A DNA stretch of 64,000 nucleotides, taken from Daejeonella sp. Its GTDB lineage: Bacteria; Bacteroidota; Bacteroidia; Sphingobacteriales; Sphingobacteriaceae. The notes beneath the pieces were generated by a model. The model worked only from the letters and a program-made list of their open reading frames with translations. It had not been told where the DNA came from and did not search any database. Made by a program: the position numbers and the translations under genes. This document shows positions 12,072 through 55,752 of this stretch, in pieces. Position 1 is the stretch's first letter, and the number at the start of each line of letters is the position of its first letter. The stretch spans positions 11,737 through 75,736 of the forward strand of contig JBBJNR010000004.1 in NCBI GenBank assembly GCA_037719315.1, given 5' to 3'.

Positions 12072-12108
12072 AAGGAGTTGTACGTTATAGGTTATAAGTT
12101 GTAAGTCT
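12072..12108. repeat. Heptanucleotide tandem array (GTTRTAN x4), single arm
   Basis: gttgtac gttatag gttataa gttgtaa gtct at 12077-12108, directly upstream of the HIT start codon. Confidence 0.7.
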
Positions 12109-12132
12109 GCTTGCAATTAAAGTTTTTGATAT

Positions 12133-12606
12133 CTATCTGCTTATTTCAACGATTTCAAACTCGATCTTTCCTGCCGGAACAACTATTTCAGCTTTATCTC
12201 CAACAGATTTACCCAGCAATCCCTGTGCTATGGGTGACTTCACAGAAATCTTGCCAGATTTTAGGTCAGCTTCACTTTCTGATACCAGCTGATAGCTCAT
12301 GGTGGCCCCATTGTTCATGTTTTTAATCTTCACAATAGATAAAGCCAGCACTTTCGTTAGATCAAGCTTCGACTCGTCGATTAATCGTGCATTGGCCAGG
12401 ACATTCGTAAGCTTCGAAATTTTAGACTCGTGGTGGCCCTGGGCTTCCTTTGCCGCATCGTATTCTGCATTCTCCGAAAGATCTCCTTTATCCCTCGCCT
12501 CTGCAATTGCTTTTGATATCTGGGAACGTCCTTCGGTCTTTAAATGATGAAGCTCCTCCTTTAATTTATCTAATCCCTCCTGGGTATAATATGTTACATC
12601 ACTCAT
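12133..12606 (-). CDS. greA: Transcription elongation factor GreA
   Basis: EARDKGDLSENAEYDAAKE and ISVKSPIAQGLLGK motifs; start moved to MSDVTY (12606). Confidence 0.97.
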   Translation of the reverse strand: MSDVTYYTQEGLDKLKEELHHLKTEGRSQISKAIAEARDKGDLSENAEYDAAKEAQGHHESKISKLTNVLANARLIDESKLDLTKVLALSIVKIKNMNNGATMSYQLVSESEADLKSGKISVKSPIAQGLLGKSVGDKAEIVVPAGKIEFEIVEISR

Positions 12607-12643
12607 GTCTCTCTCAATTTTATGGTAAACTCTATAAAACAAA

Positions 12644-12677
12644 CAAGACTATGTCGGCTTAAGCCAATATAGTCTTG
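12644..12677 (-). terminator. Intrinsic-terminator-like hairpin in the greA 5-prime region
   Basis: Minus strand: CAAGACTATAT-T-GGC-TTAA-GCC-G-ACATAGTCTTG followed by TTTGTTTT. Confidence 0.7.
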
Positions 12678-12778
12678 CTCATATCAATACGAAGATAATA
12701 TTTTTGATTTTAGATTTCCAAATTTCTGTTGTGAAATAAGATAAATTTTGAATGGAAAAATTGTTGTCGGACTTAAAG

Positions 12779-13711
12779 TCAGGAGATCATTAGTCCTTTC
12801 AACTTTTCAACCAGCACCTCCGAAATCTTTCGATAAGACTCTACTGACCAGCCCGCAACATGAGGGCTTAAAATAACTTTATCGCTTTCGATAAGTTCCT
12901 GGTACCAATCCTGTTCAGCCAAAGCAGGGAATTTTTCCACCTCAAGCACGTCAAGTCCGGCGGCTAGTATCTTTCCACTTCTTAGTCCGTTCAGAACGGA
13001 TTTAGTATTGACGATTTCGCCACGTGAAGCATTTAATAGTATGATCGCCTTTTTGAAGTGAAACAAGTACTCATCATTAAATAACTGCCTGGTTTCGCGC
13101 GTGAGAGGAACATGGAAGCTTAACACATCTGCCTGTTTTACAACCTCTTCCATGCTTACTTCTTTTACATAATGGTCGCTAAAGCCGGTTTTATATTTAT
13201 CATAAGCTAGTACATTTACGTCAAACCCCGATAGCTTTTGAGCCAGGCTGCGCCCATTATTACCATATCCAATAATGGCTATAGTCCTGCCCTTTAGCTC
13301 CCAGCCCCTGTTCCCTTCACGGTCCCATATGCCATTACGGATTTGCTGGTCCCCGTTCCTGAGTCTATTGAGCAAACCCAGCAGCATGCCAATTATATGC
13401 TCTCCTACCGCATCGCGGTTTCCTTCAGGGGCATTCAGGCAGCTTATTCCTTTCGAAACTGCGTACTCTTCATCCACATTATCCATCCCTGCGCCTGCTC
13501 TTGCTATGAACTTTAGATTTGTACCTGCGTCGATGACTTCCCGGTCGATCATAAACTTGGTACGGATGGCGATACCTGTGTAACCGTCAAGTAGTTTCAA
13601 TGTCTCTGCACGGCTGATCAAGGGCATATCATGGCATTCATAGCCAAGTTTTTCTGCTTCTTCTTTAAAGGACGGGTGCAGGTGATCTGCTATAAGAATT
13701 TTTTTAGTCAT
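12779..13711 (-). CDS. D-isomer-specific 2-hydroxyacid dehydrogenase (SerA-like)
   Basis: RAGAGMDNVD, IIGYGNNG, SFHVPLT, NASRGE, SPHVAGWS motifs; start moved to MTKKIL. Confidence 0.9.
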   Translation of the reverse strand: MTKKILIADHLHPSFKEEAEKLGYECHDMPLISRAETLKLLDGYTGIAIRTKFMIDREVIDAGTNLKFIARAGAGMDNVDEEYAVSKGISCLNAPEGNRDAVGEHIIGMLLGLLNRLRNGDQQIRNGIWDREGNRGWELKGRTIAIIGYGNNGRSLAQKLSGFDVNVLAYDKYKTGFSDHYVKEVSMEEVVKQADVLSFHVPLTRETRQLFNDEYLFHFKKAIILLNASRGEIVNTKSVLNGLRSGKILAAGLDVLEVEKFPALAEQDWYQELIESDKVILSPHVAGWSVESYRKISEVLVEKLKGLMIS

Positions 13712-13721
13712 TGATGTATAA

Positions 13722-14501
13722 TTATCTCGATACACTCACCAGGTTCGTAAGCTTAACAAAGTCATTTACACTTAATCTCTCTGCACGTAGGTCCAGCAGA
13801 GGATCGTCGTTCATATCTTCTTTACTGACCAGGGACGACAAAGCATTCCTTAATGTTTTTCGGCGCTGGTTGAAGCCTGCTTTTACCACTTTCCAGAATA
13901 ATTTTTCATCACAGTCCAGCCTTTCGACTTCATTTCGCGTAAGACGAATTACAGCCGATGTCACCTTTGGAGGGGGATTAAACACACCGGGCTTCACGGA
14001 AAATAAATACTCTACCTTGTAAAATGCCTGCAGGAAAACACTCAGAATTCCGTACTCTTTGCTTCCTGGTTTCTCTGCGCACCGCTCTGCTACCTCTTTC
14101 TGAAACATCCCCACAAGCTCCACAACCTGGTCGCGGTTATCCAGCACTTTAAAGAGAATCTGCGATGAAATATTGTATGGGAAGTTTCCAATAATGCCGA
14201 ACTTGCCCGGGAAAACACTGCTGAAGTCCATTTCAAGAAAATCACCGTTGATAAGCCTGTCGCCCAGGTGAGGGTATTTTTTTTTGAGGTAGTTGAATGA
14301 TTCCGTATCAATATCAATAAGATAAGCTTGAGGATCATCTTTACTCAATAAGAAATCAGACAAGATCCCCATACCCGGACCAACCTCCAGCACCTGGTGA
14401 TATTTATCCGTGGATTTTAGGCTGCTAACGATCTTCTCAGCTATATTCTTATCCGTTAAAAAATGCTGTCCGAGATGTTTCTTTGCCTTAACTATACTCA
14501 T
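13722..14501 (-). CDS. rsmA: 16S rRNA m6,2A1518/1519 dimethyltransferase
   Basis: KKHLGQHFL, LEVGPGMG, GNFPYNISS, FNPPPKV, FNQRRKTLRN motifs. Confidence 0.97.
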   Translation of the reverse strand: MSIVKAKKHLGQHFLTDKNIAEKIVSSLKSTDKYHQVLEVGPGMGILSDFLLSKDDPQAYLIDIDTESFNYLKKKYPHLGDRLINGDFLEMDFSSVFPGKFGIIGNFPYNISSQILFKVLDNRDQVVELVGMFQKEVAERCAEKPGSKEYGILSVFLQAFYKVEYLFSVKPGVFNPPPKVTSAVIRLTRNEVERLDCDEKLFWKVVKAGFNQRRKTLRNALSSLVSKEDMNDDPLLDLRAERLSVNDFVKLTNLVSVSR

Positions 14502-14517
14502 TTAGTTTTATTTGAGG

Positions 14518-14525
14518 CAAATTTA
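14518..14525 (-). promoter_or_regulatory. Bacteroidota -7 element for rsmA
   Basis: TAAATTTG on the minus strand, 17 nt upstream of the ATG. Confidence 0.55.
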
Positions 14526-14534
14526 CGGATTTAC

Positions 14535-14783
14535 GTTGTAAGTCTTGAAGGGAGTTGTACGTAGTACGTTGTACGTTGTACGTTCTTTCAAAACGCAAAA
14601 AGGGTTTGTAAGTTATAGGTTGTAAGTCTTCCAACACTAAGAGTGCCGCTTATGGAAAATTTTCAATGTAGAAGCAGGAATCTAGGTGTAAGATTCTCCG
14701 TCCAGACGTATAACGTAAAACGTACTACGTACAACTCCCTTTCTCCGCCCAGACGTATAACGTACAACGTAAAACGTACAACT
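14535..14783. repeat. Complex heptanucleotide (GTTGTAC) array locus with inverted and direct repeats
   Basis: 35-bp inverted repeat 14549-14583 / 14706-14740 (2 mismatches); 43-bp direct repeat 14694-14736 / 14741-14783; extra heptads at 14605-14630. Confidence 0.85.
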
Positions 14784-14860
14784 TAACGATTAAAGTCTTT
14801 ATTTTGCAAGATATTCAGAATTTGTCATCTGATATAAAAGAGAATTACAGGTACAACGGC

Positions 14861-15916
14861 ATGAGCGATAAAATTAAGATAGGTATATCCATAGGCGATG
14901 TTAACGGCATCGGATTAGAAGTGATTATAAAAACCCTGATGGATAACCGTGTATTGGAATATTGCACACCTATCGTATACGGACACACCAAAGTTGAATC
15001 CTTCCATCGCAAGACGATGGACCTTAACGAATTTAATTTTAATGTGATCAGTGCAGCAGCTGAGGCAAACGACAAGCGTGCAAATCTGATCAATTGCTGG
15101 GAAGAGGACGTCCGCATTGAACTGGGTGTGAGCACCGAGACCGGGGGAAAGTATGCATTTATTTCTTTGGAAAAAGCGCTGGATGATCTGATAGCAGGCA
15201 ACACAGACGCACTGGTTACGGCTCCGATCAACAAGCACAATATTCAAAGTGAAAATTTTCAATTTGCCGGGCACACGGAATACATCCAGGCGAAAACAGG
15301 TTCGGCCGATTCACTGATGTTCCTGGTAAGCGAGGATATAAAAGTTGGTATAGTCACCGGACATATCCCCGTGAAGGAAATACCTGAAAAGATCAGTATT
15401 GAGAAGATCCTTTCCAAGCTGGGCCTGATGAATGAAAGCCTGAAAAAAGATTTCTGGATACAGAAGCCAAAAATTGCGGTTTTAGGTCTGAATCCCCATG
15501 CAGGAGATAATGGACTAATTGGTAATGAAGAAATGGAAATAATAATCCCTGCAATATCAGAAGCTAACGCAAAGGGGATATTTGCGTTCGGGCCCTATGC
15601 TGCAGATGGCTTTTTTGCCGCCCAAACCTACGCCAAGTTTGATGCCGTTCTGGCCATGTATCATGACCAGGGACTGATCCCATTCAAACAAATGGCCTTT
15701 CATAACGGGGTAAATTTTACGGCGGGGCTGCCGGTAGTACGAACATCACCTGATCATGGAACAGGATATGATATTGCCGGCAAAAATATAGCATCCGAAA
15801 GTTCATTTCGTGAGGCTTTATTTACAGCGATTAATATTGTAGAGCGCCGCAGGGAGAGCCGGCAGCTAGCGTCCAATCCCTTAAAACTGAGTAAGTTCTC
15901 AAAGGACAGGGATTAA
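14861..15916 (+). CDS. pdxA: 4-hydroxythreonine-4-phosphate dehydrogenase
   Basis: GDVNGIGLE, TAPINK, GHTEY, GLNPHAGD, AMYHDQGLIPFK, RTSPDHGT motifs; start moved to MSDKIK. Confidence 0.96.
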   Translation: MSDKIKIGISIGDVNGIGLEVIIKTLMDNRVLEYCTPIVYGHTKVESFHRKTMDLNEFNFNVISAAAEANDKRANLINCWEEDVRIELGVSTETGGKYAFISLEKALDDLIAGNTDALVTAPINKHNIQSENFQFAGHTEYIQAKTGSADSLMFLVSEDIKVGIVTGHIPVKEIPEKISIEKILSKLGLMNESLKKDFWIQKPKIAVLGLNPHAGDNGLIGNEEMEIIIPAISEANAKGIFAFGPYAADGFFAAQTYAKFDAVLAMYHDQGLIPFKQMAFHNGVNFTAGLPVVRTSPDHGTGYDIAGKNIASESSFREALFTAINIVERRRESRQLASNPLKLSKFSKDRD

Positions 15917-15973
15917 GCGTGAGATGCTACTTCCTGATTTTCAAAAAACTGTTCCCAACTAAATAAATTTTCG

Positions 15974-15981
15974 TAAATTTG
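15974..15981 (+). promoter_or_regulatory. Bacteroidota -7 element for the DUF177-rpmF-plsX-fabH operon
   Basis: TAAATTTG, 20 nt upstream of the TTG start. Confidence 0.6.
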
Positions 15982-16000
15982 CAGGCTCAATTGGCGTGCT

Positions 16001-16534
16001 TTGAAATCGTTACAACAATACAGCATTCCATATACCGGATTAAACCTTGGGATTCACCAGTTTGAATTTGAGGTGGGCGATGCGTTCTTCACTGAATTTG
16101 AGTACTCTCTGGTTAAGAGCGCTGCGCTGAAAGTGAAGCTTGATCTTGAAAAACAGGAGACGATGATGATCCTGAATTTTCATATCTCCGGTGAGATGAA
16201 GCTGGGATGTGACGTTTGCCTGGCGGATTATCCGTATGATGTAGAAATAAACGAACGTCAGATCGCAAAGTTCACAGGCAGTACGGATCTGGAGGAAGAT
16301 ACCGAAGAGATCATTGTACTGGCTAAAAATGAAAATGAGATCAATGTAGCTTCGCTGATCTATGAATATATTAACCTGGCGGTTCCATACATTAACCGCT
16401 GCGGTGATGAAGGGAACACTGAATGGTGCGATCAGGAAATGATCGAAAAATTGAAGCAGCTTTCGGGCGACGCTAGAGCGGAGGACGAAAATGCAGACCC
16501 CCGCTGGGAGGCATTAAAAAATATTAAAAAGTAA
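16001..16534 (+). CDS. DUF177/YceD family protein
   Basis: CDVC motif, DPRWEALKNIK C-terminus, canonical position before rpmF. Confidence 0.9.
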   Translation: MKSLQQYSIPYTGLNLGIHQFEFEVGDAFFTEFEYSLVKSAALKVKLDLEKQETMMILNFHISGEMKLGCDVCLADYPYDVEINERQIAKFTGSTDLEEDTEEIIVLAKNENEINVASLIYEYINLAVPYINRCGDEGNTEWCDQEMIEKLKQLSGDARAEDENADPRWEALKNIKK

Positions 16535-16551
16535 ATTAATACATACAAAAA

Positions 16552-16743
16552 ATGGCACATCCAAAACGGAAAATATCCAAGTCAAGAAGAGATAAGAGAA
16601 GGACCCACTACAAAGCAGAGGCTCCGGGTTTAACTACCTGCCAGACTACCGGCGCTGTACATTTACCTCACCGTGCCTATACAGTTGATGGCAACTTATA
16701 TTATAACGGTAAAATGGTTATCGAGAATACTTCTGTAGCATAA
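16552..16743 (+). CDS. rpmF: 50S ribosomal protein L32
   Basis: [19 protein letters not shown]. Confidence 0.97.
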
Positions 16744-16755
16744 CATCTTTCAGAA

Positions 16756-17691
16756 ATGAGGATTGGCTTAGATATAATGGGCGGAGATTTTGCTCCCAAA
16801 GCAGCAGTTTTGGGAGCAATAGCAGCTCAAAAAGCCTTATTGCCCGATCAGAAGATCGTTCTTTTTGGAGATAAACATCAGGCCCTGCCCTTTCTTGCAG
16901 AACATGGGCTTAGCCCGGATACTTTTGAATTTGTTCACACTACCGAGATGATCGGAATGGGTGAACACGCTACAAAATCTGTTCTCCAAAAGCCCAACTC
17001 CAGTATTAGCCTTGGCTTTCAGCATCTTAAAGATGGCAGGATAGACTCTTTCTCCTCTGCGGGAAATACAGGCGCTATGCTTGTGGGAGCGGTATTCAGC
17101 GTAAAACCGGTACCCGGTGTGATCCGTCCGGCAGTTGCGACAAATATTCCCAAACTTAAATCCGGATTTGGGATCATGCTTGACGTAGGTGCCAATGCAG
17201 ATTGCAAACCGGAAGTTCTGGCTCAATTTGGAATTTTAGGCAGTTTATACGCAGAACATGTTTATCACATGCAAAATCCTAAAGTTGCACTGATGAACAT
17301 TGGGGAGGAAGAAGAAAAAGGAAACGTGCTTACACAGGCAACTTTCCCGCTTCTCCAAAAAACTAATCTCAATTTTATTGGAAACATTGAGGGGCGCGAT
17401 CTGTTCAATGACAAGGCGGATGTAATTGTTTGCGATGGGTTTACAGGAAATGTCATGCTTAAACTGGCGGAAACATTTTATATTCTTACACTGAAAAAAG
17501 GCTTCAAGGATGAATTCTTTGACAGGTTCAATTATGAACAATATGGCGGAAGTCCTATTCTGGGCGTAAACGCCCCTGTTTTGATCGGCCATGGCATATC
17601 AACGCCTGAAGCGATAAAAAACATGATAATTCTGTCCCGAACGATGATTGAAACCCAGTTTGTCGATAAAATCAAAGAAGCTTTTAAATAA
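16756..17691 (+). CDS. plsX: Phosphate acyltransferase PlsX
   Basis: IGLDIMGGDFAP, SAGNTGAM, LDVGANAD, CDGFTGNV, IGHG motifs. Confidence 0.97.
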   Translation: MRIGLDIMGGDFAPKAAVLGAIAAQKALLPDQKIVLFGDKHQALPFLAEHGLSPDTFEFVHTTEMIGMGEHATKSVLQKPNSSISLGFQHLKDGRIDSFSSAGNTGAMLVGAVFSVKPVPGVIRPAVATNIPKLKSGFGIMLDVGANADCKPEVLAQFGILGSLYAEHVYHMQNPKVALMNIGEEEEKGNVLTQATFPLLQKTNLNFIGNIEGRDLFNDKADVIVCDGFTGNVMLKLAETFYILTLKKGFKDEFFDRFNYEQYGGSPILGVNAPVLIGHGISTPEAIKNMIILSRTMIETQFVDKIKEAFK

Positions 17692-17706
17692 TTACTCTTG
17701 AATATT

Positions 17707-18693
17707 ATGTCAAAGGTCCATGCTGCAATAACAGCCGTTGATGGCTACGTGCCAGATTATATCCTAACAAATAAGGAACTGGAAGGCATGGTCGAAACCA
17801 ACGATGAGTGGATAACCACGCGTACGGGGATCAAAGAGCGCCGGATACTGAAGGGCAACCTCGGCACCTCCGACATGGCAGTAATAGCGGTGAACGGCTT
17901 ACTTAAGAAACGCGGGATCAGCGCTTCAGAGATCGACCTCATCATTTTCTGTACGACAACCCCGGACATGGTTTTTCCGGCAACAGCCAATGTCCTGGCT
18001 AATAAGATCGGCGCTACAAATGCCTGGGGATATGACCTGAACGCTGCGTGTTCGGGTTTTTTATTTGGCCTGGCTACCGGGTCCCAGTTCATTGAAGCAG
18101 GAAAACATCAGAAAGTTATCGTGGTTGGAGGTGATAAAATGTCGTCTATCATCAATTATAAAGACCGCACAAGCTGTATCATTTTCGGGGACGGTTGCGG
18201 CGCAGTGCTTCTTGAACCAAATACGGAAGGTTACGGCGTGATCGATTCTATACTAAAAAGTGATGGGTCCGGTGCGCCTTATCTTCATCAAAAGGCCGGG
18301 GGCTCGTTAAGGCCCGCCAGTCACGACACGGTGGATAATGATGAGCATTTTCTTTACCAGGAGGGGCAGGCAGTGTTCAAATTTGCGGTCACCAATATGG
18401 CCGACGTAGCTGCCGATATCATGGACAGAAATGACCTGAGTGCCGACGATGTGGCATGGTTGGTTCCTCATCAGGCAAACAAGCGCATCATTGATGCCAC
18501 CAGCAACCGTACCGGTATAGACCCGGCAAAGGTTATGATCAATATTGAGCGTTATGGAAATACCACGAACGGCACCATCCCATTATGTTTGTGGGAATGG
18601 GAAAGTAAACTCAAAAAAGGCGATAATGTTATCCTTGCCGCATTTGGAGGAGGGTTTACCTGGGGTTCCATCTATTTGAAATGGGCGTATTAA
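17707..18693 (+). CDS. fabH: 3-oxoacyl-ACP synthase III
   Basis: WITTRTGIKERR, AACSGF, FGDG, VPHQAN, YGNT, AFGGGFTWG motifs. Confidence 0.97.
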   Translation: MSKVHAAITAVDGYVPDYILTNKELEGMVETNDEWITTRTGIKERRILKGNLGTSDMAVIAVNGLLKKRGISASEIDLIIFCTTTPDMVFPATANVLANKIGATNAWGYDLNAACSGFLFGLATGSQFIEAGKHQKVIVVGGDKMSSIINYKDRTSCIIFGDGCGAVLLEPNTEGYGVIDSILKSDGSGAPYLHQKAGGSLRPASHDTVDNDEHFLYQEGQAVFKFAVTNMADVAADIMDRNDLSADDVAWLVPHQANKRIIDATSNRTGIDPAKVMINIERYGNTTNGTIPLCLWEWESKLKKGDNVILAAFGGGFTWGSIYLKWAY

Positions 18694-18695
18694 TT

Positions 18696-18765
18696 AGTTG
18701 AAAGTGGAGAGTTGAAAGTTGAAAGCGATACTGTACTTTTAACATTCAAAATTCCAAACTTAACT
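18696..18765. repeat. Heptanucleotide (AGTTGAA) array with degenerate reverse-complement arm
   Basis: agttgaa agtggag agttgaa agttgaa (18696-18723), then tttaaca ttcaaaa ttccaaa cttaact (about 18738-18765). Confidence 0.7.
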
Positions 18766-18812
18766 TAAAATTTATTATAAATTTAGACTAACCGAAAACT
18801 AAACTATAAAAA

Positions 18813-19292
18813 ATGGATATTAAACAAATTCAGGAACTCATCAAGTTTGTTTCCAGATCTGGGGTAAATGAAGTATCAATTGAGCAGAAAGAGTTTAAAA
18901 TTACCATAAAAACGAATCAGCCTCCTACGTACGTAATGGCGCCTCCCGCAGCGGTTCCGCAGCAGGCTATTGCCCTTACTAGTGCTCCGGCAGCAGCAGG
19001 TTCCGCGCCAGGCGCAGAAGCCATTACCCCGCCGAAAGAAGAAAGCTCGAATTACATAACGGTAAAATCCCCCATGATCGGAACGTTTTACCGTTCTTCA
19101 AGTCCCGATAAGCCTTTACTTGCTAATGTTGGCGATGAGATCAAAGCCGGCCAGGTATTGTGTATTATCGAAGCTATGAAGCTTTTCAACGAGATCGAAT
19201 CGGAAGTAAGCGGTCGTATCGTTAAAATTCTGGCGGACAATGCAAGCCCGGTTGAATATGATCAGCCATTATTCCTGGTTGAACCAATTTAA
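18813..19292 (+). CDS. accB: Acetyl-CoA carboxylase biotin carboxyl carrier protein
   Basis: KSPMIGTFYR and IIEAMKLFNEIE biotinylation motif. Confidence 0.97.
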   Translation: MDIKQIQELIKFVSRSGVNEVSIEQKEFKITIKTNQPPTYVMAPPAAVPQQAIALTSAPAAAGSAPGAEAITPPKEESSNYITVKSPMIGTFYRSSSPDKPLLANVGDEIKAGQVLCIIEAMKLFNEIESEVSGRIVKILADNASPVEYDQPLFLVEPI

Positions 19293-19373
19293 TTTGAAGA
19301 TCTATAATTTGAAGATTAATGCATAATTGCAGAGTCTCCATTTTCAAATTGCCAAAATTTCAAATTTTCAAAT
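19291..19373. repeat. Octanucleotide (ATTTGAAA / TTTCAAAT) array with inverted arms
   Basis: aatttgaag at 19291 and 19306; tttcaaat tgccaaaa tttcaaat tttcaaat at 19342-19373. Confidence 0.65.
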
Positions 19374-19382
19374 TAAAAAACT

Positions 19383-20723
19383 ATGTTTAAGAAAATACTG
19401 ATTGCAAATCGTGGCGAGATCGCTTTAAGGATCATTCGAACCTGTAAAGAGATGGGAGTTAAAACCGTTGCGGTCTACTCGACAGCAGACCGTGACAGTT
19501 TGCATGTTCGATTTGCAGATGAAGCAGTTTGCATCGGGCCACCGGCTAGTAAAGACTCATACCTCAGCATCCCTAATATTATTTCAGCAGCCGAACTAAC
19601 GAATGCAGATGCGATACATCCTGGCTATGGATTCTTATCAGAAAACTCTAAATTCTCAGCTATTTGCCACGATTACGGGATCAAATTTATAGGTGCTACT
19701 GCAGATCAGATCAACGGGATGGGTGATAAGGCATCAGCAAAGGAGACGATGAAAAAAGCCGGCGTACCTACCATTCCCGGCTCAGAGGGCTTGGTAAATG
19801 ATGTTAAAGAAGGAATTAAACTTTCGAACGAAATAGGATACCCCGTTATACTCAAGGCTACAGCCGGCGGCGGCGGTCGCGGGATGAGGATTGTATGGAA
19901 GGATGAAGAATTTGAACCGGCATGGGACTCTGCAAGGCAGGAATCAGCTGCCGCCTTCGGGAATGACGGCCTTTACCTTGAAAAATATGTAGAAGATCCG
20001 CGTCACATTGAAATCCAGGTCGTGGGAGATCAATATGGCAAGGTATGCCACTTATCTGAGCGCGATTGTTCCATTCAGCGCAGGCATCAGAAGCTTGTCG
20101 AAGAATCGCCATCGCCCTTCATGACCCCAGAGCTAAGGGAAAGAATGGGCGACGCAGCTATTAAAGGAGCCCAGGCCGTTAACTATGAAGGCGCCGGAAC
20201 GGTGGAGTTCCTGGTTGACAAGCACCGGAACTTCTATTTTATGGAAATGAATACCCGGATCCAGGTAGAGCATCCGGTAACGGAAGAGGTTATTAATTTT
20301 GACCTGATCAAAGAACAGATTAAAGTGGCTTCGGGGATTCCGATCTCCGGTAAAAACTATATTCCTGAGATGCACGCCATCGAATGCCGGATCAATGCGG
20401 AAGACCCTTTCAACAATTTCAGGCCTTCTCCGGGATTGATCACACATTTTCATTCCCCGGGAGGACATGGAGTGCGGGTAGATACGCACGTATACGCCGG
20501 ATACCAGATCCCTCCGAATTACGACTCGATGATTGCAAAGCTGATCTGCGTGGCACAGACGCGTGAAGAAGCCATTTGCACGATGGAACGCTCGCTGAGC
20601 GAATTTGTCATTGAAGGGGTAAAAACTACCATTCCTTTCCACCTGCGATTGATGAAGGACCCAAACTTCCGCGCGGGTAATTTCACTACCAAGTTTATGG
20701 AAAGCTTCGATCTGAGCGAATGA
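19383..20723 (+). CDS. accC: Acetyl-CoA carboxylase biotin carboxylase
   Basis: [49 protein letters not shown] motifs. Confidence 0.98.
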
Positions 20724-24764: not shown

Positions 24765-26162
24765 ATGAGCACACTGGCATCCGATTTCATTTCTACTTCA
24801 GGTACTAAAGCGTTTGACCTCGATCACCGGCGGATCATTAACAATAATATTGGTAAGTATGACACCGCTGTTCTAAGAGGCTTATCCAGATTGTCTAATC
24901 TCGAAAATTCGAAACGCAAGGCACATACGGTCAAATGGAAGGTGATGGAAAACCTGGACAAGCATTTGCCTGAATTTGAGGCCAATTTTCAGCGAAAAGG
25001 AGGTAAAGTGATCTGGGCAAATGATGCTGATGAAGCCCAAAAAGAAATCCTCAATATCATTAAAAGAGCCAATGCCAAAACCGTCATTAAATCAAAATCA
25101 ATGGTTACGGAAGAAATTCATTTAAATGAATTTCTTGAACAAAACCATATAAGCGCTGTTGAGAGCGATCTTGGCGAATACATTGTCCAGCTTCTCGGTC
25201 AGAAACCTTATCATATTGTAACCCCGGCAATGCATCTTAGCAAAGAGGATATTGCTAAACTTTTTAATGAAAAATTCGGCACTCCGACAGACGCCACACC
25301 GGAACAACTGACATTAAAAGCCAGGGAGCTCCTTAGGGATAAATATACCTCAGCTGACATCGGAATAACCGGCGGCAATTTCCTGATCGCCGATACGGGA
25401 AGTATCGCCCTGACTGAAAATGAAGGAAATGCCAGGCTCACTACCACTTTTCCCAGGATCCATATTGCAATAGTGGGTATCGAAAAAATAATTCCGTCCA
25501 TGCAGGATCTTGACCTATTCTGGCCCTTGCTGTCGACGCATGGGACCGGTCAGAACCTGACCGTATACAATACTATTCTTGGCGGTCCGAAACAAGCACA
25601 TGAAAGTGATGGTCCGGAAGAAATGTATGTCATATTATTAGATAACGGCCGCACTAACCTTCTTGCTCAAAAAGATCAGCGTCAGGGGCTTTACTGCATT
25701 CGCTGCGGCGCATGCCTGAATGCGTGTCCGGTGTACAAAAACATTGGAGGGCATACCTACGAAACTACCTATAGCGGGCCAATCGGATCGATCATCACCC
25801 CTCACATGGCTGGAATGAAAGAGTTCAAGCACTTAAGCTATGCCTCAAGCCTTTGCGGAAAATGCTCGGAAGTATGCCCGGTAAAGATCGACATCCACAA
25901 AATGCTTTTGCTAAACCGCAGAGATTCCGTTGACCAGGGGCTAAGCCCGGCCACTGAGAGCATCAGCTGGAAAGGATGGAAAATGGGTATGATGAAACGG
26001 AAAATGATGGATATGATCGGCGGAAGCTGGAAAAACAGAATTCTGAAGACCTTTTTCAAAAAAAGCTGGGGGGCGAACCGTGAACTGCCGGAAGTCGCTA
26101 AAAAATCATTCAGCGAACAATGGAGGGACGGTGAAAGCGGAAAGCTCAAGGCTGAACGCTGA
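24765..26162 (+). CDS. lutB: Lactate utilization protein B (LutB/LldF), 4Fe-4S protein
   Basis: KSKSMVTEEI, ESDLGEYI, HIVTPAMH, CIRCGACLNACP and CGKCSEVCP ferredoxin motifs. Confidence 0.92.
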   Translation: MSTLASDFISTSGTKAFDLDHRRIINNNIGKYDTAVLRGLSRLSNLENSKRKAHTVKWKVMENLDKHLPEFEANFQRKGGKVIWANDADEAQKEILNIIKRANAKTVIKSKSMVTEEIHLNEFLEQNHISAVESDLGEYIVQLLGQKPYHIVTPAMHLSKEDIAKLFNEKFGTPTDATPEQLTLKARELLRDKYTSADIGITGGNFLIADTGSIALTENEGNARLTTTFPRIHIAIVGIEKIIPSMQDLDLFWPLLSTHGTGQNLTVYNTILGGPKQAHESDGPEEMYVILLDNGRTNLLAQKDQRQGLYCIRCGACLNACPVYKNIGGHTYETTYSGPIGSIITPHMAGMKEFKHLSYASSLCGKCSEVCPVKIDIHKMLLLNRRDSVDQGLSPATESISWKGWKMGMMKRKMMDMIGGSWKNRILKTFFKKSWGANRELPEVAKKSFSEQWRDGESGKLKAER

Positions 26163-26174
26163 ATGCTGAAAGCT
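26133..26174. repeat. Heptanucleotide (GAAAGCT) array x6 overlapping the lutB stop codon
   Basis: gaaagcg gaaagct caaggct gaacgct gaatgct gaaagct. Confidence 0.75.
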
Positions 26175-26203
26175 TATAGAAAACTCATCACATAATTGCT
26201 GAA

Positions 26204-28186
26204 ATGAATTTCGACCGTAAAGATATTTCTGATACCCGCCTCCTAAATTTCTACAGACTGCTGCTGAAGCCGCGTTTGATCGAGGAAAAAATGCTAATCC
26301 TGTTAAGACAAGGACGCATCGGCAAGTGGTTTTCCGGGATTGGCCAGGAAGCAATCGCCGTAGGAACCACACTCGCGATGAAGGATGAGGAGTATATCCT
26401 TCCGATGCATCGAAACCTTGGCGTTTTTACAAGCAGAGGGATTCCTTTATCCCGCCTAATGGCTCAATGGCAAGGCAAAAGCTCAGGATTTACAAAAGGC
26501 CGAGACAGATCCTTTCACTTCGGCACCAAAGAATATAATATTGTTGGAATGATATCGCATCTGGGGCCTCAGCTTGCTATTGCAGACGGAATTGCCCTGG
26601 CAGACGTATTAAGGAATGATCAAAAGGCGACTTTAGTTTTTACGGGCGAGGGGGCTACCAGCGAAGGCGACTTCCATGAAGCGCTTAATGTGGCTGCTGT
26701 ATGGGATCTGCCCGTGATATTTATTATTGAGAACAATGCATATGGCCTGTCGACCCCCACAAATGAACAGTATCGATGTAAAAGCCTGGTTGATAAAGCT
26801 GTTGGATATGGTATCGAAGGAATTCGCATCGATGGCAATAATATTCTGGAAGTTTATCATACAATAAACCAAATTGCTGTAGATATTCGTCAGAAACCTC
26901 GTCCTGTGCTGATCGAATGCATGACGTTTCGAATGAGAGGGCATGAGGAAGCTTCAGGCACTAAATATATTCCTAAGGAATTGTTTACAGAGTGGGAAAA
27001 GAAGGACCCTCTGAAAAACTTCGAAGAATACCTGCTACAGGAGAAAATATTAAGCGAAAATACAATTTTGGAAATACGGTCGGAATTTAAGCTTGAGATC
27101 GATTCGGAAATTGAAAAGGCATTTGCAGAAGATGATATTATTGCAGAAACGGATATCGAAGTTGATGACATGTATGCGGTTCATAAATCTGAACCAATCG
27201 ACGCCTCTGATCCCTCCGCTAAAACAGATAAACGGTATATAGATGCTATCAGTGATGGACTGCGGCAATCTATGCAGAAATTTCCTGAGTTAGTGATTAT
27301 GGGTCAGGACATTGCCGAATATGGCGGGGCTTTTAAAATAACGCTGGGCTTTGTGGAAGAATTTGGAAAAGCCAGGGTACGGAACACCCCTATCTGCGAG
27401 TCGGCGATAGTTGGAGCAGCACTTGGTTTATCTATAAATGGCCATAAAGCCGTAATGGAAATGCAATTCGCGGATTTTGCTACCTGCGGATTTAACCAGA
27501 TAATTAACAATCTGGCGAAGACCCATTATCGCTGGGCTGAAAAAGCTGATGTGGTGGTGCGTATGCCTACTGGCGCCGGAACCGGAGCCGGACCATTTCA
27601 TTCTCAAAGTAACGAGGCATGGTTTACCAAGACCCCTGGTCTCAAAGTTGTCTACCCCGCTTTTCCCTCGGACGCCAAAGGTCTCTTAAATGCTGCAATT
27701 GAGGATCCCAATCCGGTAATTTACTTTGAGCATAAATATCTTTACCGCGCCATATCCGAACTTGTTTTTGATGATTACTATACCCTGGAAATCGGCAAAG
27801 CAAGGCTGGTTCAGGAGGGCGATCAGATAAGCATAGTTACCTACGGGCTCGGTGTGCACTGGGCTATGGAATATCTGGGGGATCATCCGGAGATATCTGC
27901 AGACCTCGTTGACCTTCGCAGCCTGCAACCATGGGATAAAAATGCAGTAGAGCAATCCGTAAAAAAGACGGGCCGTGTGATCATCCTTCATGAAGATACA
28001 CTTACCGGTGGTTTCGGAGGTGAGATCAGCGCGCACATTGCAGAACATTGCTTTGAATTTCTGGATGCCCCGGTCATGCGATGTGCGAGCTTAGATACAG
28101 CAATACCGATGAATAAGTCGTTGGAAGATAATTTTCTAGCGAAATCGCGCCTCCATGATCAAATAAAGAGCTTGCTGAAGTATTAG
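26204..28186 (+). CDS. Fused 2-oxoacid dehydrogenase E1 alpha/beta subunit
   Basis: GIGQEA, GEGATSEGDFHEALN TPP-binding motif, NTPICESAIVG, PFHSQS, HEDTLTGGFGGE; 660 aa. Confidence 0.93.
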   Translation: MNFDRKDISDTRLLNFYRLLLKPRLIEEKMLILLRQGRIGKWFSGIGQEAIAVGTTLAMKDEEYILPMHRNLGVFTSRGIPLSRLMAQWQGKSSGFTKGRDRSFHFGTKEYNIVGMISHLGPQLAIADGIALADVLRNDQKATLVFTGEGATSEGDFHEALNVAAVWDLPVIFIIENNAYGLSTPTNEQYRCKSLVDKAVGYGIEGIRIDGNNILEVYHTINQIAVDIRQKPRPVLIECMTFRMRGHEEASGTKYIPKELFTEWEKKDPLKNFEEYLLQEKILSENTILEIRSEFKLEIDSEIEKAFAEDDIIAETDIEVDDMYAVHKSEPIDASDPSAKTDKRYIDAISDGLRQSMQKFPELVIMGQDIAEYGGAFKITLGFVEEFGKARVRNTPICESAIVGAALGLSINGHKAVMEMQFADFATCGFNQIINNLAKTHYRWAEKADVVVRMPTGAGTGAGPFHSQSNEAWFTKTPGLKVVYPAFPSDAKGLLNAAIEDPNPVIYFEHKYLYRAISELVFDDYYTLEIGKARLVQEGDQISIVTYGLGVHWAMEYLGDHPEISADLVDLRSLQPWDKNAVEQSVKKTGRVIILHEDTLTGGFGGEISAHIAEHCFEFLDAPVMRCASLDTAIPMNKSLEDNFLAKSRLHDQIKSLLKY

Positions 28187-28203
28187 GGCCGTGGGATATC
28201 GCA

Positions 28204-28812: not shown

Positions 28813-28813
28813 T

Positions 28814-30928: not shown

Positions 30929-30930
30929 AA

Positions 30931-32418: not shown

Positions 32419-32467
32419 TTGTTTTGTTTTTTGTTCAAAAATAGTTTAAGTAGGGCAGACTTCCAAA

Positions 32468-32590
32468 AAGGAGCAAAGATCAAGGATCAAAGAATAAAGA
32501 CTCAATTTGATGTGACAAATCAAATTCCTAGTCTGAATTTTTATTCTATACTCTTTGTTTTTGTTCCTTGATCTTTGCTCCTTGTTCCTT
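32468..32590. repeat. Heptanucleotide (AAGATCA) array with inverted arms
   Basis: Five heptads at 32469-32503; perfect 19-bp inverted repeat 32468-86 / 32565-83; inner hairpin aatttgat/atcaaatt. Confidence 0.8.
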
Positions 32591-32597
32591 AATCTAT

Positions 32598-50601: not shown

Positions 50602-50629
50602 TTTGAGGTGTGAGATATGAGATGTGAGG
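50602..50629. repeat. Heptanucleotide (TGTGAGA) array x4, single arm
   Basis: tttgagg tgtgaga tatgaga tgtgagg in the 35-nt gap immediately before the dut start. Confidence 0.7.
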
Positions 50630-52446: not shown

Positions 52447-53389
52447 TTAAAAGGTCAATTTACTAATCCTGGCTTTCTCGGCAATAAATTCATCCCATAT
52501 CTCCTGCAAAATTTGCGCGGCAGGCTTTATTTCATGGATGGTTGATGCTATTTGCCCGATCTCCAGCTCGCCATCTTCCACATTGCCTTCAAACATGCCC
52601 AATTTGGCACGTCCGCGGCCTAGTAAGGCCATCAGATCGGAGCGGCTAGCTCCATCTGCTTCGGCTTTTTCCACCTGACGGAAGAATTCATTTTTCATCA
52701 ACCTTACTGGGATAAGCGACTTCATGCTTAGTTTGGTATCACCCTCCTTTGCATTCACCATGGCATTTTTAAAATTATTATGGGCAGATGATTCTAAAGA
52801 GGCAGCAAATAAGGAGCCCACCTGAACCGCTTCCGCACCAAGCGCTATGGCAGCAAGCATTGCCTTTCCGCTTCCAATCCCGCCAGCTGCAATTACCGGA
52901 ACCGATACTGCCTGGCAGATCTCCGGGACCAGGCACAATGTGGTGGTTTCTTCACGGCCGTTATGTCCGCCGGCTTCAAAGCCTTCGGCAACGACGGCGT
53001 CCACTCCGCTTTGTTCTGCCTTCTGTGCAAATTTTATATTGGCGATCACATGGACAACCTTCATATCATGTTCTTTCAGAAAAGCTGTCCATTTTGAAGG
53101 ATCTCCCGCAGAAGTGAAGACGGTCTTCACCTGTTCTTCTGCCAGAATATCCATTATTTCCCCAATATTTGGATAACAAGGGCACATTTACACCAAAAGG
53201 CTTCGAAGTAGCAGCTTTACATTTCCGGATATGGTCCCGCAAAATTTCCGGGTACATAGAACCGGCGCCGATCAGGCCCAGGCCACCGGCATTTGAGACG
53301 GCAGACGCCAGTCGCCAGCCGCTGCACCAGACCATACCTGCCTGAATGATTGGAAATTCTATATCAAAAAGCTTTTTAAGAGAGTTCAT
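52447..53389 (-). pseudogene. Nitronate monooxygenase / FabK-like flavin oxidoreductase split by a frameshift near 53174
   Basis: N-half (PIIQAGMVW...PFGVNVPLL) and C-half (YPNIG...AEGFEAGGH, IAAGGI) lie in different frames; adding 2 nt in CCCTTGTTATCCA restores VNVPLLYPN. Confidence 0.85.
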
Positions 53390-53603
53390 TGCTGTAAAGT
53401 TGAACTTTTATGGTCACAACAGCAAAATTAGGTGAAATGAGTGGGGATCATTCCGATCTACCATGGACGCAGCGTAGCTCGCCAGTTGTCAGAAATTTGA
53501 ATGAACCGCTAAGTGACAAAGATTGTGGTTAGGGGTATTGAGGTCCAGAGCCTTAATCGGGAGGTCCCTCGTCACCTGAAGGGGCGCCAGGGAGAAATTC
53601 ATT

Positions 53604-55532
53604 TCACGAAGCAATACTTCTGGTAGCCCTGCCTACCACCAAACTTTTAACCATTTTCACAATCCCCTGTGCATCAAATCCACATTCCGACCACAGCTCA
53701 GGTTGTTCGCCATGTTCAATAATCTTATCGGGGATCCCAAGACGGACAACCCGAGAGGAATAATTATGGTCTGCCATGAATTCGAGGATGGCACTACCCA
53801 TGCCGCCCTGGACACAGCCGTCCTCTATAGTTACTACGTGTTTAAACTTTTTGAATACCTGGTGCAGGAGCGTTTCATCAAGCGGCTTAGCAAAGCGCAT
53901 ATCGTAATGCGCCGGATGAATCCCTTCAGAATTCAATTCCAGGCAGGCTTTCACAGCTTCGTTGCCTATATGCCCGATACTGAGTATAGCGACATCTTCC
54001 CCTTCGCATATCGTTCTGGCTTTTCCTATCTCAATTTCTTTCATAGGCCTTCTCCAGTCGGTCATGACCCCGTTGCCGCGAGGGTACCTGATGCTGAAAG
54101 GCCCTTTATTTCCCTGCTGCGCGGTGAACATCAGATTTCTCAGCTCCTCCTCATTCATCGGGGCTGAAACTATCATGTTTGGGATACATCGCATGTAAGC
54201 CAGATCGTAGGCGCCGTGATGTGTGGGGCCGTCAGAACCCGCAAATCCGGCACGATCAAGGCAAAAAACGACATTTAATTTTTGTATGGCCACATCGTGT
54301 ATCACCTGGTCAAAGGCACGCTGCATAAAGGTTGAATAGATATTACAGAACGGGATCATACCTTGCGTAGCCAGTCCGGCCGAGAATGTTACCGCATGCT
54401 GCTCTGCTATCCCAACGTCAAATGCACGTTCGGGCATCGCCTTCATCATAATATTTAAGGACGACCCGGAAGGCATCGCAGGCGTAACACCCATGATCTT
54501 GCTGTTCTTTTCCGCAAGTTCCACCATGGTGTTGCCAAAGACATCCTGGTATTTCGGGGCCAGGGGCTTATCGGTAACTGTTTTTTGAATTTCACCGGTG
54601 ATCTTATCAAAAAGACCGGGGGAATGCCATTTGGTTTGGTCTCTTTCTGCCAGTGCGTACCCTTTGCCTTTGACCGTTACGCAATGCAGCAGTTTCGGTC
54701 CGGGAATATCTTTGAGGTCGCTAAGCACTTTGACCATATGTTTTACGTCATGACCGTCAATAGGCCCGAAATAGCGGAATTTAAGTGCCTCGAAGAAATT
54801 GCTTTTCTTAAGCAAGCCCCCTTTTATAGATTTTTCCACTTTCTTTACTATTTCATGGGCATTCGGGCCAAGTTCTGAGATCTTGGTAAGGACATAAGAA
54901 ATATCATCGCGAAAGCGGTTGTAGGATTTTGAAGTTGTAATATCAGTCAGATATTCTTTCAGCGCGCCCACATTCGGATCGATAGACATGCAGTTATCAT
55001 TCAGGATCACCAGGATATTCGATTTTTCAATACCCGCATGGTTCAGCGCTTCAAAAGCCATTCCGCCGGTCATCGCACCGTCTCCTATAACAGCCACATG
55101 CTGCCTGTTGGTTTCGCCCTTGTAGTTTGAAGCCACCGCCATGCCCAGTGCAGCAGATATTGACGTCGAAGAATGGCCTACTCCGAAGGTATCATACTCG
55201 CTTTCGGCGCGTTTGGGGAACCCACTTATGCCTTTATAAATGCGGTTTGTATGGAAGCTGTGACGCCTGCCGGTAAGGATCTTATGGCCGTATGCCTGAT
55301 GTCCTACATCCCAGACCAGCTGATCGTAGGGCGTGTTCAGCACGTAATGGAGCGCCACGGTCAGCTCAACAACCCCTAAGCTGGACCCAAAGTGCCCCCC
55401 GTTGACAGAAACTGTATCTACGATGAACTGCCTGAGTTCTGCGCAGATCCGGTCCAGATCTGCCTCCTGGAATTTTTTCAGATCAGAAGGGTAGTTTATC
55501 TGCTCGAGAAATTCGCCTGCCTTAACTTCCAT
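53604..55532 (-). CDS. dxs: 1-deoxy-D-xylulose-5-phosphate synthase
   Basis: GGHFGSSLGVVEL, WDVGHQAYGHK, GDGAMTGG, DVGIAEQHA, RYPRG motifs. Confidence 0.98.
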   Translation of the reverse strand: MEVKAGEFLEQINYPSDLKKFQEADLDRICAELRQFIVDTVSVNGGHFGSSLGVVELTVALHYVLNTPYDQLVWDVGHQAYGHKILTGRRHSFHTNRIYKGISGFPKRAESEYDTFGVGHSSTSISAALGMAVASNYKGETNRQHVAVIGDGAMTGGMAFEALNHAGIEKSNILVILNDNCMSIDPNVGALKEYLTDITTSKSYNRFRDDISYVLTKISELGPNAHEIVKKVEKSIKGGLLKKSNFFEALKFRYFGPIDGHDVKHMVKVLSDLKDIPGPKLLHCVTVKGKGYALAERDQTKWHSPGLFDKITGEIQKTVTDKPLAPKYQDVFGNTMVELAEKNSKIMGVTPAMPSGSSLNIMMKAMPERAFDVGIAEQHAVTFSAGLATQGMIPFCNIYSTFMQRAFDQVIHDVAIQKLNVVFCLDRAGFAGSDGPTHHGAYDLAYMRCIPNMIVSAPMNEEELRNLMFTAQQGNKGPFSIRYPRGNGVMTDWRRPMKEIEIGKARTICEGEDVAILSIGHIGNEAVKACLELNSEGIHPAHYDMRFAKPLDETLLHQVFKKFKHVVTIEDGCVQGGMGSAILEFMADHNYSSRVVRLGIPDKIIEHGEQPELWSECGFDAQGIVKMVKSLVVGRATRSIAS

Positions 55533-55557
55533 GTAGGTTTTGTAAAAAATTATCCAG

Positions 55558-55565
55558 CAAAAATA
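55558..55565 (-). promoter_or_regulatory. Bacteroidota -7 element for dxs
   Basis: TATTTTTG on the minus strand, 26 nt upstream of the ATG. Confidence 0.55.
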
Positions 55566-55623
55566 ACTTATTTATGAAACTTTTTTTAATAAAAGGTTGA
55601 TCCGGGAAAGGTTGTGGAATGAG

Positions 55624-55752
55624 ATCTGAATTCTGGGGTCTGATGTTTGAGGTCGGAGGCTGATGGATGAAAGCAGTAAGCTGAAGTCCGAGATGGTAGG
55701 CTTTTGCATGTCAGACTTCCGGCCTCAGACCTCCGACTTCCGTCCCCGACCT
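55624..55752. repeat. Degenerate heptanucleotide (GTCGGAG / CTCCGAC) arrays with inverted arms
   Basis: atctgaa ttctggg gtctgat gtttgag gtcggag (55624-58); tcagact tccggcc tcagacc tccgact tccgtcc ccgacct (55711-52). Confidence 0.7.

Follow-up and report, generated by a model that had tools for sequence, protein, structure and literature searches.

Intervening sequences (IVS) that bear an open reading frame (ORF) are found in the 23S rRNA of Leptospira, Coxiella and other bacteria, where RNase III cuts the stem that closes the loop around the ORF. These elements are the source of the name of the protein family PF05635. The TIGR02436 family ('23S rRNA IVS protein') occurs in up to dozens of copies per genome, and we know of no function for it outside the diversity-generating retroelements. 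Avd, the protein of those retroelements, forms a pentamer that carries positive charge and has a defined RNA-binding element (10.1101/2023.10.23.563531). Here we examine a 64,000-nt stretch of the genome of Daejeonella sp. (Bacteroidota, Sphingobacteriaceae; contig JBBJNR010000004.1, positions 11,737 to 75,736), termed the window throughout, in which short tandem arrays of 7-nt or, once, 8-nt units lie between genes at eight loci, and compare these arrays with the flanks of TIGR02436 genes.

In cyanobacteria, tandem repeats of heptamers were recognized decades ago as short tandemly repeated repetitive (STRR) sequences. TAACTGA repeats ending beside start codons were described from Beggiatoaceae, Cyanobacteria and some Bacteroidetes; the authors suspected horizontal transfer, for which there was "no mechanism evident" (PMC4679880). 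GGGAATC and GGGGA(C/T)T repeats are present in Xanthomonas and Nostoc, with convergent inverted pairs reported in Xanthomonas (PMC4692102). Our full-text searches found no paper tying heptamer repeats to PF05635/TIGR02436 genes, though such a link may still have been published. If the relationship proposed below is true, the heptamer repeats and the TIGR02436 family, two long-standing orphans, would explain each other.

Arrays of the window and the gene found in the accB-accC spacer

The arrays of the window are probably the orphaned, gene-less inverted tandem-repeat arms of a widespread family of TIGR02436 cassettes. A complete cassette consists of a 5' arm, an ORF of ~120-130 aa of the TIGR02436/PF05635 family ('23S rRNA intervening-sequence protein', Avd-like) and a 3' arm of reverse-complement units. 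In the 5' arm a unit of 7 nt, or in one clade of Bacteroidota 8 nt, is repeated in tandem 2 to >25 times. The cassette fills the spacer of two genes, usually co-directional and often partners in the same operon, with its arms abutting the stop and start codons of the neighbors. The window would retain five arm pairs and three lone arms of such elements, and no ORF. The data below establish the architecture, its generality, the sharing of units with gene-bearing cassettes, the complementarity kept at ~500 nt despite drift of the unit, and the predicted hairpins.

A match/mismatch scan for periodicity (score of at least 9, null from local shuffles) recovered 8 period-7 arrays in the 64-kb window against 0.33 expected (maximum 2), whereas periods 4-6 and 8-13 were not enriched over the shuffle null in the window, and a period-14 signal is a harmonic of 7. 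An earlier reading of this DNA from the letters alone (the sequence-only reading) had listed eight array loci. All eight carry the arrays it described, as seen both with Tandem Repeats Finder and by direct reading, and the excess over a shuffled null and the gene names at the junctions (HIT, pdxA, accB, accC, gcvH, dut, scpA and their neighbors) likewise held. A single period-8 array is present (19353-19374). The eighth period-7 match (53296-53322), which was absent from that earlier list, is rejected as a chance coding false positive in a conserved N-terminal motif of a nitronate-monooxygenase gene. This gene (52447-53389, - strand) seems to be divided between two ORFs that overlap (53066-53389 and 52447-53187), which could reflect a frameshift, a pseudogene or an error of assembly.

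When 80 related loci are taken together with the window, 89% of the DNA is coding, yet 84 of the 101 arrays are intergenic. Within the window every array locus sits between protein-coding genes, and the flanking genes examined are all housekeeping genes (Table 1). Seven unit types occur within the 64 kb. Inverted arm pairs are present at five loci (14548, 18696, 19288, 32459 and 55603), with loops spanning only 10-122 nt, and lone arms, in which the second reverse-complement arm is absent, at three (12074, 26130 and 50604). An iterated profile search of all window ORFs of at least 40 aa detected no TIGR02436/PF05635 or Avd-like protein; hence the window loci are gene-less arm pairs or lone arms. 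Rfam gave no match to rRNA or any other family in the window.

The gene itself is found at the orthologous site in other Bacteroidota, between arms built of the 8-mer unit of the window locus, a comparison that the sequence-only reading had put forward. We compared 80 Bacteroidota loci centered on accC, the nearest relatives of the window being Pelobium, Pedobacter, Mucilaginibacter and Sphingobacterium (AccC 88-93% identical). In many of these loci the accB stop codon is followed by a G-type periodic arm, a loop, a C-type periodic arm and, after 5-10 nt, the accC start codon. This layout recurs in Sphingobacteriia, Flavobacteriia, Cytophagia and Chitinophagia, and the units vary with the lineage (AATTTGAA, GATGTGCA, AAGTTAG/AATTGTCT, CAATTAGC and others). 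In a Ferruginibacter metagenome-assembled genome (MAG; locus L053) the loop between the arms holds a 130-aa ORF that matches the TIGR02436 'four helix bundle protein' model (92 bits against a cutoff of 24) and PF05635. The order there is accB stop, (TGCAAAAG, TGCAAATG, TGCAAAT), ORF, (ATTTGCAC, ATTTGCAC, TTTTGCA), accC ATG, and the flanks TGCAAAAGTGCAAATGTGCAAAT and ATTTGCACATTTGCACTTTTGCA form a perfect 23-nt inverted match across 505 nt. Another accB-accC locus (L038) carries a frameshifted, decaying TIGR02436 pseudogene, an intermediate between the gene-bearing and gene-less forms. Some genomes have compact accB-accC spacers of 13-30 nt without arms (L016, L028). It is these that are truly empty, and the window loci, which had been interpreted as empty sites, are arms without a gene.

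A metagenome scan with the L053 protein returned 80 loci (57-84% identity), ~62 of them between accB and accC and the remainder at at least five other junctions, for instance between genes for mannose-1-phosphate guanylyltransferase and an exonuclease-like protein. At the loci examined the gene was co-directional with the neighbor or neighbors seen, though the downstream neighbor in L105 is convergent, and the arms touch the neighbors' stop and start codons where this was measured. Significant inverted arms flank 66 of the 75 testable genes, with period 8 in both arms at 65 of the 66. Period-8 arrays occupy 73 of the 75 upstream and 74 of the 75 downstream flanks (median 4.4 units, mode 4-5). 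The left arm has the form (AATNNNNN)n, as in AATGTGCA, AATTAGCA, AATGTGAA, AATTTGAA or AATGGCTC. The arms, ~500 nt apart, form 1809 Watson-Crick pairs over 2119 aligned positions (62 distinct pairs), with the unit differing between loci.

Arm units across phyla and in the window

The same arrangement is seen well beyond the accB-accC spacer. A tblastn search of PLSDB plasmids yielded 31 records annotated 'four helix bundle protein', and 16 of these together with 4 chromosomal or MAG examples made up a diverse set of 20 genes from Bacteroidota, Cyanobacteriota, Spirochaetota, Bacillota and Chloroflexota. By eye, all 20 have period-7-type arrays on their flanks, those of the 16 plasmid genes being mostly complementary arms on either side. 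Under a strict score both-side arrays are found at 12 of the 20, against 8 of 1193 control genes. The sequence-only reading had offered a link of such arms to TIGR02436 genes, and the two samples (66/75 and 20/20) bear it out. In five bacterial phyla or more, the long unexplained heptamer repeats are in this way connected with one particular gene cassette.

The units of these cassettes are diverse. Among the plasmids they include (TTAGTGA)x16 ... TCACTAA in Bernardetia, (GTCGGAG/GTCGGAA)x4-8 ... (CTCCGAC/TTCCGAC) in Nostoc, (GTAATTC)x4(GGAATTT)x6 ... (ACGAATT)x4 in Dolichospermum, (GGTGAAA/GCGGAAA)x~25 ... (CTCTCCG)n in Treponema, CAGTTAC ... (ACTGGTC)x13 in Euhalothece, (GATGAAG) ... (TTCATAA) in Chlorohelix, AATTAGG ... 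CCTAATT in Monoglobus and GGGGATT/AATCCCC in Planktothrix. The chromosomal and MAG examples from Flavobacterium (PhoU/PHO4), Paludibacter, Maribellus and a 'Spirochaetes' MAG have G[GA]TTA[GA]T units. On a Chondrinema litorale plasmid (L162, ~1270-1500 and 1860-1975) the arms contain TAACTGA, and one ends directly before the ATG of a resistance-nodulation-division (RND) permease gene. Hosts that are operon partners comprise RND adaptor/permease, cas2/cas1, hsdS/hsdR and helicase/methylase pairs. The nearest solved relative of the cassette protein is PDB 2RLD (E 2e-21), which has five chains.

The sequence-only reading regarded the unit sequence as free, which the wider sample contradicts: units fall into families that follow the protein clade, and some of the window's units recur in cyanobacterial or spirochaete cassettes. 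The clade with G[GA]TTA[GA]T units, whose proteins are 65-80% identical, occupies five different junctions in Cytophagia, Flavobacteriia, Bacteroidia and the 'Spirochaetes' MAG. The closest relative of the Chondrinema (Bacteroidota) protein is that of Euhalothece (Cyanobacteria), at 59% identity, and both have CAGT-type units. Switches also occur, in that the Dolichospermum protein is 77% identical to the Nostoc proteins, yet has different units. The arm units thus follow the protein clade and not the junction, with some switches.

Some further sites deserve mention in their own right. Four-helix-bundle genes among defense or mobile operon partners (L161-L176, L390) were seen between cas2 and cas1 (Anabaena cylindrica), upstream of cas1 (Pseudanabaena), between hsdS and hsdR (Monoglobus), between hsdS and a gene of no known type (Maribellus), between helicase and DNA methylase genes (Dolichospermum, Chlorohelix, Planktothrix) and beside xisH/xisI (Nostoc). 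An identical 117-aa four-helix-bundle protein (L378-L387), indexed in 61 contig-collection blocks, lies between PhoU-like and PHO4 phosphate-transporter genes of Flavobacterium in 10 of the 10 places shown, and its arms have only ~2 units (GATTAAT).

Several window arrays share sequence with gene-bearing cassettes. The accB-accC arms use the AATTTGAA / TTTCAAAT unit of three cassettes (L103, L109 and L121) and have a 21-nt exact word in common with the arm of another (L152). With unit and exact words in common, the window locus would be a gene-less form of the cassette, and we hold this assignment with high confidence. For 55603 and 26130, sequence comparison likewise gives good grounds for a putative assignment: the region 55600-55755 has two 15-nt exact words in common with both arms of Nostoc plasmid TIGR02436 cassettes, including the non-repeat flank GTTTGAGGTCGGAGG, and the 26130 array a 15-nt exact word in common with the Treponema cassette arm. 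The units of 12074/14548, 18696, 32459 and 50604 have no match of at least 12 nt within the arms of gene-bearing cassettes. Viral contigs scanned with GTTGTACGTTGTAC and AGTTGAAAGTTGAAAG gave 120+ and 81 matches, near chance by a rough estimate, and the loci fetched contained no TIGR02436 ORF.

Anatomy, predicted folding and polarity of the window loci

Table 1. Tandem-array features of the window, with predicted RNA folds (z against shuffles)
Feature	Position	Strand	Junction	Sequence and setting	Predicted fold
Lone arm	12074..12109	-	greA/HIT	between greA stop (12133) and HIT start (12071); G-poor; 5 nt short of ATG; sense strand CAGAC-(TTACAAC, TTATAAC, CTATAAC, GTACAAC)-TCC	no stable fold
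5' G-type arm (locus 14548)	14527..14584	+	rsmA/pdxA	fragment GGATTTACGTTGTAAGTCT, then GGGAG-(TTGTACG)n	14520-14800: -98 kcal/mol, z -7.3
Extra G-type copy of 33-nt module, inside loop	14602..14634	+	rsmA/pdxA	families D1, D3, D4	
3' C-type arm	14694..14787	+	rsmA/pdxA	TTCTCCGnCCAGAC-(GTATAAC, GTAAAAC, GTACnAC, GTACAAC)-T, twice; families D2, I1, I4	
Hairpin	18696..18765	+	fabH/accB	G arm (AGTTGAA)x4.3 at 18696-18725, 3 nt past fabH stop; C arm 18736-18765	18690 locus: -19.4 kcal/mol, z -3.6
Hairpin filling the spacer	19288..19377	+	accB/accC	G arm of AATTTGAAG units from accB stop; C arm ATTTTCAA/ATTTCAAA, period 8, stopping 6-8 nt ahead of accC ATG	19288 locus: -19.3 kcal/mol, z -3.4
Lone G-type array	26130..26174	+	lutB/fused E1 alpha/beta dehydrogenase	GGTGAAA, GCGGAAA, GCTCAAG, GCTGAAC, GCTGAAT, GCTGAAA; 30 nt ahead of next gene	no stable fold
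Hairpin	32459..32596	-	sprA/gcvH	sense strand: G arm GGAGCAAAGATCAAGGA... after sprA stop; C arm ends 37 nt ahead of gcvH ATG	32455 locus (- strand): -50.3 kcal/mol, z -6.3
Lone arm	50604..50628	-	flippase-like/dut	between flippase-like stop (50635) and dut start (50599); CTCACAT, CTCATAT, CTCACAC; sense strand G-free; 5 nt short of dut ATG	no stable fold
Hairpin between divergent genes	55603..55752	+	dxs/scpA	G arm (…GTTTGAGGTCGGAGGCTGA…) 55603-55665; C arm CAGACTTCCGGCCTCAGACCTCCGACTTCCGTCCCCGAC 55710-55752	55600 locus: -61.7 kcal/mol, z -3.8

At the rsmA/pdxA locus, the arms at 14548-14584 and 14706-14741 are 94% complementary over 36 nt, the irregular unit GTAGTAC included (family I1). A tandem duplication (14694-14787; 47 nt x 1.9 copies, 90% matches) takes in the entire 3' arm together with 14 nt of flank, indicating that an arm grows by duplication of whole modules as well as of single units. 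Furthermore, one dispersed module of 33-36 nt, GGAG-(TTGTACG-like)x4-TCTG, is present in the 12074 array and in the copies at 14551 and 14602, that is, at three places within 2.7 kb. With this module in common, the copies at 12074 and 14602 are dispersed repeats and not independent products of slippage. The 12074 arm is 81-82% complementary to the arms at 14703 and 14750 (families D1/I2). Between the 3' arm and the homology-supported start of pdxA (~14861), at 14790-14860, lies a motif, TTTATTTTGCA, that is kept in relatives and resembles the Bacteroidota -7 promoter element; the rsmA/pdxA element would then lie upstream of the pdxA promoter and not in the leader.

Comparison with relatives reveals that array sites recur while the units turn over. 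At the fabH/accB junction within Sphingobacteriaceae, six loci have periodic arms with a different unit in each, and the remainder have none; the units across related genera are GTTGAAA, GGTTAGT, GAGTAGT, ATATGTTA and GATGTGCA. The greA/HIT spacer of a Pelobium MAG contains a different periodic hairpin. The window hairpins on either side of accB (18696-19377) use related TTGAA-type units, and the corresponding regions of L007 (9160-9980) and L015 (9230-9990) use GATGTGCA; this relatedness could also permit pairing across the gene, between the upstream C arm and the downstream G arm, with accB itself looped out. A Bacteroidia MAG (L046) has arrays of 11-16 units of the AACTATT / AGTTAAG types at several junctions around fabH-accB (6784-6862, 9127-9239, 18914-18974 and 19961-20012), and no four-helix-bundle gene was detected in its 21 kb.

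The 26130 array encodes the last ~10 codons and the stop (26162) of lutB, and the alignment of LutB to its relatives stops at residue 455 of 465. Three array loci have the terminal motif CAGACTT[AC]C without mismatch, but it was chosen post hoc and is given no weight. Away from the arrays, a small feoA-like ORF (30931-31146) lies upstream of feoB and is followed by ~490 nt (31150-31636) in which there is neither a tRNA nor an Rfam match nor any ORF of 60 aa or more.

That the arms could fold as hairpins agrees with the prediction for every two-armed locus, the z values of which run from -3.4 to -7.3. The 3' arms are trailed by A-rich sequence (by eye), and no terminator-like call was made among the arm hairpins in the segments scanned (12000-20000 and 26000-33000, covering 12074, 14548, 18696, 19288, 26130 and 32459).

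The sequence-only reading took the order of the arms, G-containing before C-containing, as fixed. It holds at all five two-armed loci of the window, identically on both strands and thus independently of gene orientation. Among the metagenomic relatives it is a tendency of ~83%, the G-richer arm lying upstream of the cassette's own ORF in 54 loci and downstream in 11, and the proportion is similar by eye in the diverse set. With this order in a hairpin, an adjacent start codon sees the G-poor arm and an adjacent stop codon the G-rich arm. The companion claim, that a C-rich arm lies shortly before start codons, is correct as regards position: HIT, pdxA, accB, accC, gcvH, dut and scpA each have a G-poor arm 5-78 nt ahead of the start codon. 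Of 42 arrays within 60 nt of a start codon, 34 (81%) have C>G on the sense strand. The same bias is present, however, in 68% of all upstream regions (40 nt) of these genomes, so the general G-poverty of Bacteroidota leaders accounts for a part, and only a part, of this pattern. Leader composition as the sole cause of the polarity was rejected, both on the 81% against the 68% baseline and as it cannot explain G-first order relative to the cassette's own ORF. Inspection of the sequences also spoke against the units being promoter elements of the Bacteroidota type (TAnnTTTG), and this idea was dropped.

Origin of the arrays and comparison with known systems

Several observations weigh against reading the window arrays as cassette relics. 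The TIGR02436 gene is absent from the window and from 15 Sphingobacteriaceae loci, and periodic accB-accC hairpins occur in four classes with the gene mainly in Chitinophagia-like contigs, so that the hairpin could predate the gene. Five of the seven unit types (GTTGTAC, AGTTGAA, AAGATCA, TGTGAGA and partly GAAAGCT) lack a same-unit gene-bearing cassette, and it is therefore architecture by itself that argues for their assignment. No insertion polymorphism, target duplication or mobilizing enzyme was seen that would establish the putative mobility. In a test for selection on the sense-strand RNA, mismatches between arms were mostly transversions and G:U exceeded A:C only weakly and not significantly (63 vs 43, p 0.06), which does not demonstrate selection on RNA pairing. 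Public sequencing runs containing the window organism are of soil metagenome DNA only, and there are no usable public RNA runs for this organism, for the Flavobacterium-type accB-accC locus or for a cassette locus (L127). Finally, arrays spanning 2 to >25 units misfit a strict model of one unit per subunit.

The first of these points leads to the alternative that the hairpin came first: periodic-arm hairpins would be native to Bacteroidota operon spacers, with roles in mRNA processing, stability or translation uncoupling, and would have grown by replication slippage; TIGR02436 genes would be later guests of the loop, and the window loci would never have held one. The order stop, G arm, loop, C arm, start at accB-accC in four classes with lineage-specific units, and the gene in a subset only, is what this predicts, and the differences in fabH/accB units between related genera fit local turnover. 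It is harder to reconcile with a unit family that stays with a single protein clade at five or six unrelated junctions and in different phyla, with arms that in cyanobacteria, Treponema and Chlorohelix reach right up to the start and stop codons of the ORF itself, with both-side arrays at 0.7% of control genes vs 60-100% of TIGR02436 genes, and with the truly compact accB-accC spacers of L016 and L028; we judge it unlikely. Independent polymerase slippage, under which the arrays would be ordinary heptanucleotide simple-sequence repeats of no common origin or function, we consider very improbable. Copy number does vary widely, and heptanucleotides are the commonest long simple-sequence repeats in many genomes, for which slippage was proposed (Mrazek 2007, as cited in PMC4679880). 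Slippage nevertheless fails to provide for the irregular units common to both arms of inverted pairs, the 33-36-nt module at three places within 2.7 kb, the enrichment of period 7 only (plus one period-8 array), the conservation of array position across classes or the tight association with one gene family. A third proposal makes the hairpin secondary. The units would be bound by an oligomeric protein that recognizes single-stranded nucleic acid, whether a cold-shock-type protein or TIGR02436 pentamers from a gene elsewhere in the genome, in competition with the hairpin, to set translation downstream. The modal arm of 4-5 units alongside a pentameric family (the five chains of 2RLD; Avd), the lone G-poor arms stopping 5 nt before the HIT and dut start codons, the correlation of unit type with protein clade, and the likeness to the Beggiatoaceae TAACTGA repeats, which end 1 nt before start codons and for which regulator binding was proposed (PMC4679880), all speak for it. 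Yet the Dolichospermum protein has different units despite 77% identity to its Nostoc counterparts, many cognate paralogs would be required for seven unit types in 64 kb, and arrays can exceed 25 units; we consider this proposal rather improbable.

We thus retain orphaned cassette arms as the preferred reading. In the transcript of a complete cassette the arms would pair as a stem of 20-40 bp and loop out the ORF, as in the ORF-bearing 23S rRNA intervening sequences, and the looping out would allow the insertion to be tolerated inside an operon. By analogy with those elements, such an RNA stem with RNase III processing is a reasonable conjecture, though we lean slightly against it. After decay of the ORF the arms would collapse to a short hairpin or a single arm, which would remain in the spacer and either influence mRNA processing or stability or serve as a G-poor, unstructured leader. 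A possible rationale for the G-first order is that, with the G/U-rich arm transcribed first, the C-rich, G-poor arm would never stand exposed as long single-stranded RNA without a partner. Binding of the 4-5 repeat units by the basic pentameric protein is more speculative; this recognition of its own units by the cassette protein is a tentative suggestion that we are inclined to doubt.

A still wider proposal, equally tentative and on balance doubtful, is that many unexplained bacterial heptamer and octamer arrays (STRR-type, TAACTGA, Bacteroidota) may be arms or orphaned arms of one unrecognized class of cassette. Such cassettes would be intervening-sequence-like and transposase-less, would spread within and between phyla, would lodge inside operons, including those of CRISPR-Cas and restriction-modification systems, where the RNA stem would render them harmless, and would encode an Avd-like pentamer recognizing its own units. 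If arms and gene indeed form one cassette, the binding of arms by the protein, RNase III processing and insertion polymorphism become testable, and annotation pipelines could flag orphan arms as cassette relics. The presence of cassettes inside essential and defense operons (accB/accC, RND adaptor/permease, cas2/cas1, hsdS/hsdR) also raises the question of how the expression of these operons tolerates or exploits them.

Among described systems, repetitive extragenic palindromic (REP) sequences and bacterial interspersed mosaic elements (BIME) with REP-associated tyrosine transposases (RAYT), together known as REPtrons, and the miniature transposable elements with inverted repeats known as MITEs resemble the cassette in having a gene flanked by inverted short structured repeats and many gene-less copies in spacers. 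They differ in that the cassette gene encodes a four-helix bundle without known catalytic activity and not a transposase, and in that the arms are tandem arrays and not single palindromes. As with a MITE, the window has inverted arms and one module three times within 2.7 kb, although no target-site duplication was identified and no evidence of transposition was seen. Avd of the diversity-generating retroelements shares with the cassette protein a homologous fold and family (PF05635); unlike in those retroelements, the cassette genes are solitary, between housekeeping or defense genes, and no reverse transcriptase or template-variable repeat context was seen, no search aimed at them having been made.

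The STRR, TAACTGA and Xanthomonas-Nostoc repeats are, like the arms, intergenic tandem heptamers of 2-6 or more copies that often end just before a start codon and have a patchy phylogeny. The TAACTGA unit recurs in the Chondrinema cassette arms, and those of Planktothrix are GGGGATT/AATCCCC. Those of PMC4679880 and PMC4692102 were linked to no flanked gene and are treated there as one unit per genome, as opposed to seven in the window. The period and location of the window arrays fit the cyanobacterial STRR, but their host belongs to Sphingobacteriaceae and the units differ, except for the GTCGGAG type, which Nostoc plasmids also have. With respect to the 23S rRNA intervening sequences, the cassette is distinguished by a protein-coding operon spacer as its host, by closing arms that are tandem 7/8-nt arrays and, in the window, by copies without the ORF. 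What the two have in common is the same protein family, a loop closed by complementary flanks and a transcribed host unit that is not destroyed.

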